A stretch of 64,000 nucleotides of DNA, taken from assembly GCA_951406725.2 (NCBI GenBank), contig OX597824.1:58466001-58530000 (forward strand), in the 5' to 3' direction. The notes beneath the pieces were generated by a model, which made no database searches, had not been told where the DNA came from, and saw only the letters and a list, made by a program, of their open reading frames with translations. The first letter of the stretch is position 1. Every line of letters starts with the position of its first letter. Position numbers and translations under genes: made by a program. The stretch comes from Octopus vulgaris. Its lineage: Eukaryota. Of the stretch, positions 33,601 to 34,555 are shown in pieces.

Positions 33601-34088
33601 GCTGAAACGTCAACTGGCACCAACAGATTCTTTGAATGAGAACATTTTAGGTATTTTGATATCACTAAACCGACGTGCGATTATATATAATATATGCACA
33701 CACGCGCTTACACACGTACACACATGCGCGCGCACACATACACACGCACACACACGCGCGCGCACATACACATGCACACGCACACACACACACACACACA
33801 GAGTCATAGAATTCTCTTTACGAATTTCACATGATTTCGCCCTAAATTTTAAGGAGAATATTTTCTGAATAAATTATGTAACACTGATTGTGACGATGTA
33901 TCGAGTCCATCATCTGATTCTTAAAAATTTAGAATATCTTTGTACGATTTTGTGTGTATATGTATATATGTATATATGTATATATATATATATATATATA
34001 TATATATATATGTGTGTGTGTGTGTGTGTGTGTATATATATATATATATATATATGTATCAAAAGAAAAACAGGACGCAAAGGTTTTT

Positions 34089-34175
34089 GCGGTACATATG
34101 TTTCGGGCTTTATTGAACAACTTATATCAATGCATAATTGATATAACAGGTAGGTCATAAGCCTTCTTCAGCCGC
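34089..34175 (-). ncRNA. Type I hammerhead ribozyme motif
   Basis: gcgg-CUGAAGA-a-ggctt...(10-bp inner hairpin)...aagcc-c-GAAA-catatg-UA-ccgc; palindromic ACAUAUGU. Confidence 0.8.
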
Positions 34176-34473
34176 GTACAATTACCACACCAAAGACATG
34201 TATCACATTATAGCATGTTTGAGAAAAAGTTTGGGAAAAAGCCGAGTTTCATTGGGAAAGTAAATCCTCATAGGCGTATATGGCATTGCGAGACACCAAA
34301 ACAAAACGTCCATATCGTTTTCTCACTCGATACACACACACACACACACACACACACACACACACATATATATATATATATATATATATATATATATATA
34401 TATATATGTATATATATATATATATATATATATATATATATCAAAATAAGAAACAGGATATCAAGATGTGATG

Positions 34474-34555
34474 CAGTACGACATTTTCAAGCGACTCCAT
34501 TTAATTGAACAACACAATGATTACATCAATTTAAATGCAGGGCTATCCTCAGCTG
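34474..34555 (-). ncRNA. Type I hammerhead motif, diverged paralog of 34089
   Basis: cag-CUGAGGA-tagc...long stem II...gctt-GAAA-atgtcg-UA-ctg; stem III imperfect. Confidence 0.6.

Follow-up and report, generated by a model that had tools for sequence, protein, structure and literature searches.

Hammerhead ribozymes of Penelope-like elements (PLEs) have been described in terminal repeats, together with their dimer design and their covariation within a genome (Cervera and de la Pena 2014, PMC4209133). In the published dimer, the helix III strands of two ribozymes pair and their stem I strands are exchanged (PMC4209133, PMC6765202); dimer cleavage was also reported by Lunse et al., as cited in PMC6765202. 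The elements themselves are characterized by pseudo-LTRs, an optional tail, inverted 5'-truncated copies and an insertion bias towards microsatellites (PMC8557442, PMC11167929), and for an anole element cleavage was reported to be dispensable for insertion in vitro (PMC11167929). The animal non-LTR retrozymes are described as related to PLE terminal repeats (PMC7229834; 10.64898/2026.07.22.740005).

We analyzed a stretch of 64,000 nucleotides (the window) from the 2.8-Gb, microsatellite-rich genome of Octopus vulgaris. Two hammerhead motifs, denoted A and B, lie close together on its minus strand. The features of the locus are as follows.

33957 to 34057, no strand: (TA)n/(TG)n tract bordering stub A on its 3' side, from the sequence
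34058 to 34331, minus strand: stub A, by family matches and alignment the 5'-truncated 3' end (pLTR, no tail) of Penelope-like family A
34089 to 34175, minus strand: hammerhead A, with stem I GCGG/CCGC, core CUGAAGA and GAAAC..GUA, and a 60-nt stem II insert
34332 to 34439, no strand: (CA)n(TA)n microsatellite separating the stubs, the type of site where both families end
34440 to 34771, minus strand: stub B, by family matches and alignment the 5'-truncated 3' end (pLTR, no tail) of Penelope-like family B
34473 to 34556, minus strand: hammerhead B, decayed, with stem I ACAG/CUGC (GCAG/CUGC in the family) and a 57-nt stem II insert

Read as minus-strand RNA, copy A is GCGG-CUGAAGA-(60 nt)-GAAAC-AUAU-GUA/CCGC (34175-34089) and copy B is ACAG-CUGAGGA-(57 nt)-GAAAA-UGUC-GUA/CUGC (34556-34473), the last slash marking the predicted cut. 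Both contain the type I core CUGANGA ... GAAA ... UH and, on this sequence evidence, are genuine type I hammerheads of the minus strand whose cleavage is predicted. The cuts would fall at 34093/34092 in A and at 34477/34476 in B, 384 nt apart; the GUA position in A agrees with the cut proposed earlier, between 34093 and 34092. The helix III strand of copy A is the palindrome ACAUAUGU, and its core, stem I and helix III carry the commonest letters of family A. In copy B, the helix III strand is AAUGUCGU, compared with ACGGUCGU in the family version. Position 15.2 of copy B is A (C in 22 of the 27 other B copies), and loop 3 is altered further by a change in the base beside it. The 15.2-16.2 pair, which is C-G in A and intact in family B generally, is A-G in the window copy of B.

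Folded alone, the stem II inserts beat shuffled sequences (z -3.06 for A and -1.98 for B), which upholds the earlier remark that these long inserts differ and yet both fold. The whole motifs folded no better than shuffles (z -1.21 for A and +0.68 for B). Stems I and II formed in a short fold of copy A, and in its preferred fold the core-adjacent pair of stem II was an A-C mismatch. An Rfam scan at E <= 1 returned 336 matches, and hammerheads were absent among the 150 listed.

The preliminary description regarded A and B as two related repeat ends about 385 bp apart. The relatedness is seen in the 143-nt stretches around the ribozymes, which align with 91 identical letters over 156 columns and a score of 75 (shuffles, 36 +/- 8.5; highest of 500, 64). 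Over the next 128 nt upstream no similarity between A and B was found (score 25; shuffles, 30 +/- 8). The ends belong, however, to separate families and not to one repeat. Own-genome searches, in which the best 40 of 1,363 candidates for A and the best 40 of 2,308 for B were scored (figures that are not copy numbers), gave 40 other near-full-query matches at 92-97% for end A and 39 at 87-90% for end B. The two halves of the locus are 87-97% identical to their own dispersed copies, compared with 58% to each other. Exact family motifs occur at least 222 times (A) and at least 1,054 times (B) in the genome, with none in the reversed controls. An A end was found within 1.5 kb of B at none of the 29 other B loci. 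A more distant B-like end lay near A at 5 of the 29 other A loci, and these five probably derive from one duplicated event because their common flanks are 94-99.5% alike. To judge from these matches, A and B are the 3' ends of different dispersed Penelope-like families.

Walking upstream in other copies led from each end to a putative source gene. In locus L135, family A runs colinearly from RT pieces through an endonuclease and a long non-coding stretch to the hammerhead end; family B shows the same arrangement in L107, with an RT piece and a GIY-YIG-type endonuclease. The Pfam GIY-YIG model scored below its cut-off on the B endonuclease (E 3e-4; 21.4 versus 22.6 bits), and Pfam gave no match on that of A. 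Among the loci traced, neither family was represented by an intact full-length element. A sister family, with an endonuclease 73% identical to that of A, has 842-codon open frames in L132-L134, and in L132 and L134 an almost identical hammerhead core lies downstream of them. Neither Pfam nor a PDB sequence search gave an RT match for this frame; RT motifs are visible in the protein by eye. At E <= 1e-10 the protein has 1,379 homologs, most of them unnamed, and PF01541 is carried by 2 among the 120 listed; named homologs of the PLE protein come from Argonauta and Solemya. The order of RT and then GIY-YIG domain upstream of the terminal repeat, with weak Pfam support and absent from the stubs in the window, points to endonuclease-bearing PLEs.

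Copies of A and B terminate in (TA)n or (CA)n, either directly or behind an optional tail of 75-90 nt, which was present at 12 of the 22 A loci listed (some partial) and at 12 of 29 B loci, with 2 more partial. Inverted 5' pieces are frequent among these copies, and other PLE families adjoin them, nest within them or occupy the same microsatellites. With the pseudo-LTR hammerhead, the optional tail and the inverted 5' copies, families A and B display the hallmarks of PLEs.

Two RT frames next to these copies were rejected as the genes of A or B. The 764-codon RT-endonuclease frame beside B copies on C2 belongs to a different family that lies tail-to-tail with B, and in L104/L105 the RT frame next to A belongs to another family following or interrupting A sequence. 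The family on C2 is present as two inverted copies, 99.8% identical (G000:C2:171,247,700-171,256,500; L062-L063), whose 764-codon frame has a Pfam RVT_1 match and adjoins a B end tail-to-tail; the strict hammerhead pattern was not matched in its 3' region. Long Asn-rich low-complexity inserts, which vary by family, lie between the RT thumb and the endonuclease (L107:4981-6144, L132:2077-4602 and L138:3673-4824). The LYRDD motif and the Cys linker of these PLE frames resemble those of Nematis.

Stub A ends on (TA)n. Generic repeat finding at the locus was dominated by microsatellites, and no target-site duplication was readable in the microsatellite. After duplicates had been dropped, comparison with the commonest letters of each family (24 of 29 A loci and 27 of 29 B loci) revealed 4 differences in 273 positions (1.5%) for the A copy of the window and 19 in 321 (6.0%) for the B copy, which suggests that stub B is older than stub A. 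The two stubs are likely to be separate insertions into one simple-repeat patch, both their order and their independence being drawn from the comparisons above.

The preliminary description further proposed that stem I, GCGG/CCGC in one motif and ACAG/CUGC in the other, had undergone a compensatory change from G-C to A-U. This swap is real; it concerns the pair second from the core and, because family B usually has GCAG/CUGC and family A GCGG/CCGC, it represents a fixed family difference. The leading A of 'acag', by contrast, is a private mismatch that breaks a stem I pair; it is G in 26 of the 27 other B copies.

Covariation was measured on the core-pattern matches in the fetched loci (182 in total, 153 distinct), grouped into 32 clusters with one natural representative each, chosen for the commonest combination of stem I and loop 3. 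A and B fall into clusters that also contain their relatives. Shuffled and slid controls were used rather than R-scape; the clusters are related to each other, and these controls allow for their relatedness in part. Stem I pairs 1-4 were Watson-Crick in 30, 27, 22 and 16 of the 32 clusters (shuffled means 11.7, 10.4, 8.6 and 7.5), and pairs 5-6 were at chance level. Stem II pairs 2 and 3 were Watson-Crick in 25 clusters each (shuffled 9.8 and 8.6); for the core-adjacent pair of stem II the number was 13 (shuffled 10.0, p = 0.17), with A-A in 6 and U-U in 5. Loop 3 was self-complementary at its two pairs in 27 and 22 clusters, versus 15.6 and 9.1 after shuffling. When the partners were slid, the counts fell from 79/96 to 20-37 for stem I and from 85/128 to 29-43 for stem II. 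All four Watson-Crick types were seen at most paired positions. At the inner loop 3 pair of family B, counted by eye among 100 matches listed that are copies of few lineages, we observed A-U 33 times, G-U 46 times and G-C 17 times.

Because covariation across the 32 clusters is strong, selection on the hammerhead structure in the source elements is well supported; helices I and II covary. Genomic copies behave differently. In family B, private changes were as frequent at catalytic positions (6/392) as in the flanks (142/6555; p = 0.59), and inserted copies of this family decay neutrally. Family A is borderline (1/349 versus 70/4620, p = 0.06): its deficit of core changes is unlike pure neutral decay, in a set of copies picked by similarity. 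Since the core of family B decays like its flanks, selection is likely to have acted on the active source elements and not on the two stubs. The earlier suggestion that covariation indicates selection is thus borne out for the source elements, and does not extend to the stubs themselves.

It had also been suggested that the same-orientation pair could fold as a double hammerhead, in which case A and B of one minus-strand transcript would together make a functional heterologous ribozyme. They share a strand and a spacing of 384 nt, PLE hammerheads are described as needing a partner (PMC4209133, PMC6765202), and the stem I swap between the 5' strand of A and the 3' strand of B yields 4/4 pairs, including one G-U. 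The other swap, however, yields 2/4, and copy B is without C15.2. The helix III strands form 3/8 pairs in A:B (-1.4 kcal/mol) and 5/8 (+0.9) even when A is combined with an undecayed B, whereas the same-family helices are complete in A:A (8/8, -7.0 kcal/mol) and in typical B:B (8/8, -5.8); the window copy of B with itself forms 4/8. Computed cross-helix probabilities did not exceed 0.0003 in a 518-nt context; local stem I was also near 0 there, so that this value is weak evidence and we relied on the pair counts. The two families are in addition unlike in age and are found apart elsewhere. The pairing counts do not support a double (dimeric) hammerhead of A and B, and a functional heterologous one is very improbable. 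Their separate families and probably separate insertions make a functional pair unlikely.

An old tandem dimer of the retrozyme type, in which one unit was duplicated and then diverged, would likewise account for the 384-nt spacing and for the related sequence around the ribozymes. Animal retrozymes are described as tandem hammerhead repeats, with type I hammerheads on one strand a few hundred nt apart as here (PMC7229834; 10.64898/2026.07.22.740005). Retrozymes are, however, tandem copies of one unit, whereas the A/B pair joins two families: the similarity ends upstream of the ribozyme, each half is far closer to its dispersed copies than to the other (87-97% versus 58%), and each leads to its own endonuclease gene at other loci. 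The pair does not appear to be an animal retrozyme, and such an origin is extremely improbable. It is also unlikely that copy A remains an intact ribozyme still cutting transcripts of the host or read-through transcripts here, either alone or in trans with another family-A RNA. The undecayed letters of its core, stem I and helix III, the stems I and II of its short fold and the reported cleavage of an anole PLE hammerhead in vitro (PMC11167929) would be in keeping with activity. Against this stand a monomer helix III of 2 bp only, the A-C mismatch beside the core on stem II, the reported inactivity of minimal PLE hammerheads as monomers and their low activity as dimers (PMC4209133), and the report for the anole PLE that no RNA-seq reads start or end at the cut site (PMC11167929). 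Of the family-A contig pieces listed from 4 sequencing runs presumed to be RNA, none covered the full stretch; such contigs show neither strand nor ends and carry no weight on expression. We consider it very probable that a single account covers the locus: PLE ends from different families, inserted separately and now inert, with homodimer cleavage and selection confined to their parents.

Other hammerhead-like sequences were seen in the window. Two intact hammerheads of one family lie in tandem on the minus strand at 16,735-17,441 (17371-17299 and 16935-16863, 436 nt apart) in 270-bp repeats that are 96.7% identical; their helix III strand, ACCGCGGU, is fully palindromic (-14.1 kcal/mol), with an inter-copy probability of ~0.4. 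This family is dispersed and has compensatory variants (CUUG/CAAG versus CCUG/CAGG, and CCGCGG versus CUGCAG). The pair at 16,863-17,371 is a much better candidate for a double hammerhead or a retrozyme-like unit than the A/B pair. A hammerhead-like motif at 60,914-60,982 (minus strand) has 6-bp stems I and II and an irregular helix III and may be decayed or a chance match; weaker core-pattern matches lie on the plus strand at 15,276-15,340, with a complementary stem I, and at 21,162-21,200. A fragment at 42,750-42,941 resembles another PLE. By eye, we take the fragments at 1,134-1,715, 15,424-15,879 and 37,317-38,097 to be mariner transposase-like, Tc1-like transposase and LINE frame-like, respectively.

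In the genome as a whole, the hammerhead pattern with a 45-70 nt insert gave 25,938 matches (reversed control, 458) and that with a 14-44 nt insert 11,301 (control, 601); some overlap between them is possible, and together they amount to ~37,000 matches versus ~1,060 in the controls. They comprise dozens of hammerhead families that differ in their loop 3 palindromes. Of 30 pattern loci sampled, 2 had a PLE protein within 1.5 kb, in line with the expectation that most copies are truncated, and outside A, B and the sister family we infer that the matches are of PLE origin. Random placement of the 25,938 matches would give ~60 same-strand neighbours within 500 bp; because so many are expected by chance, the proximity of A and B needs no function, and the pair is coincidental. 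Another pair from different families, at L174, with (TA)n between its members and a distance of 375 bp, was present among the first 100 matches listed.

The octopus hammerheads share with those described in PMC4209133 the type I topology, the CUGANGA/GAAA core, a stem I of 3-4 bp, the tiny palindromic helix III, the terminal-repeat position, the predominance of solo truncated copies and the many covarying families in one genome. They differ in the stem II insert, which is 57-60 nt here compared with the 7-8 bp helices of the main text of PMC4209133, and in the core-adjacent pair, which is not the conserved G10.1-C11.1 with 5' bulge of that paper (Watson-Crick in 13/32, as above). The ~37,000 matches compare with ~9,000 given there for Xenopus, obtained with different search patterns. 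As in the Penelope/Poseidon, Neptune and Nematis elements with C-terminal GIY-YIG described by Craig et al. (2021, PMC8557442), there is a single RT-endonuclease frame, together with a pseudo-LTR, an optional tail, inverted 5'-truncated copies and a microsatellite bias. The tails, however, are 75-90 nt here and 30-40 there, and the octopus elements have more than 1 kb of 3' non-coding sequence and Asn-rich inserts between RT and endonuclease. In the literature searched we found no published cephalopod PLE hammerhead, although the supplementary alignments of PMC4209133 and PMC8557442 may contain such cases; the word 'ribozyme' does not occur in the main text of a 2026 Octopus repeat paper. Relative to the text of this literature, the long stem II, the relaxed core-adjacent pair and the copy number alone are different.

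For the parents we propose the following mechanism. Active elements would probably yield partial-tandem transcripts holding two same-family ribozymes, and two terminal repeats of one family, in tandem or in trans, would join by their palindromic 8-nt helix III strands to give a homodimer that would self-cleave after GUA. Target-primed reverse transcription starting near the 3' end, into an AT-rich microsatellite and with early 5' truncation, could then leave such stubs, and those of the window are probably inert. The differences between A and B would be compensatory because selection on the parent lineages likely kept the structure. A broader reading, which we put forward tentatively and regard as rather doubtful, holds that the ~37,000 sequences are PLE-type hammerheads of dozens of families, most of them with an unusually long stem II and a relaxed core-adjacent pair. 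Their palindromic loop 3 would serve as a family barcode, so that each retrotransposon family would cleave only with members of the same family, and in family B it would have changed through G-U intermediates (GAUC/GGUC/GGCC).

Taken together, the A/B pair itself carries little weight, as it consists of two adjoining fossils. The genome, on the other hand, offers many families with clear dimer-helix covariation and intact-looking sister elements, and homodimer versus heterodimer cleavage is easily testable here, with a same-family tandem pair available in the same window. If the barcode reading is true, no other single genome would hold a larger natural set of covarying hammerheads than these families, which would provide a direct test bed for the role of the PLE ribozyme.
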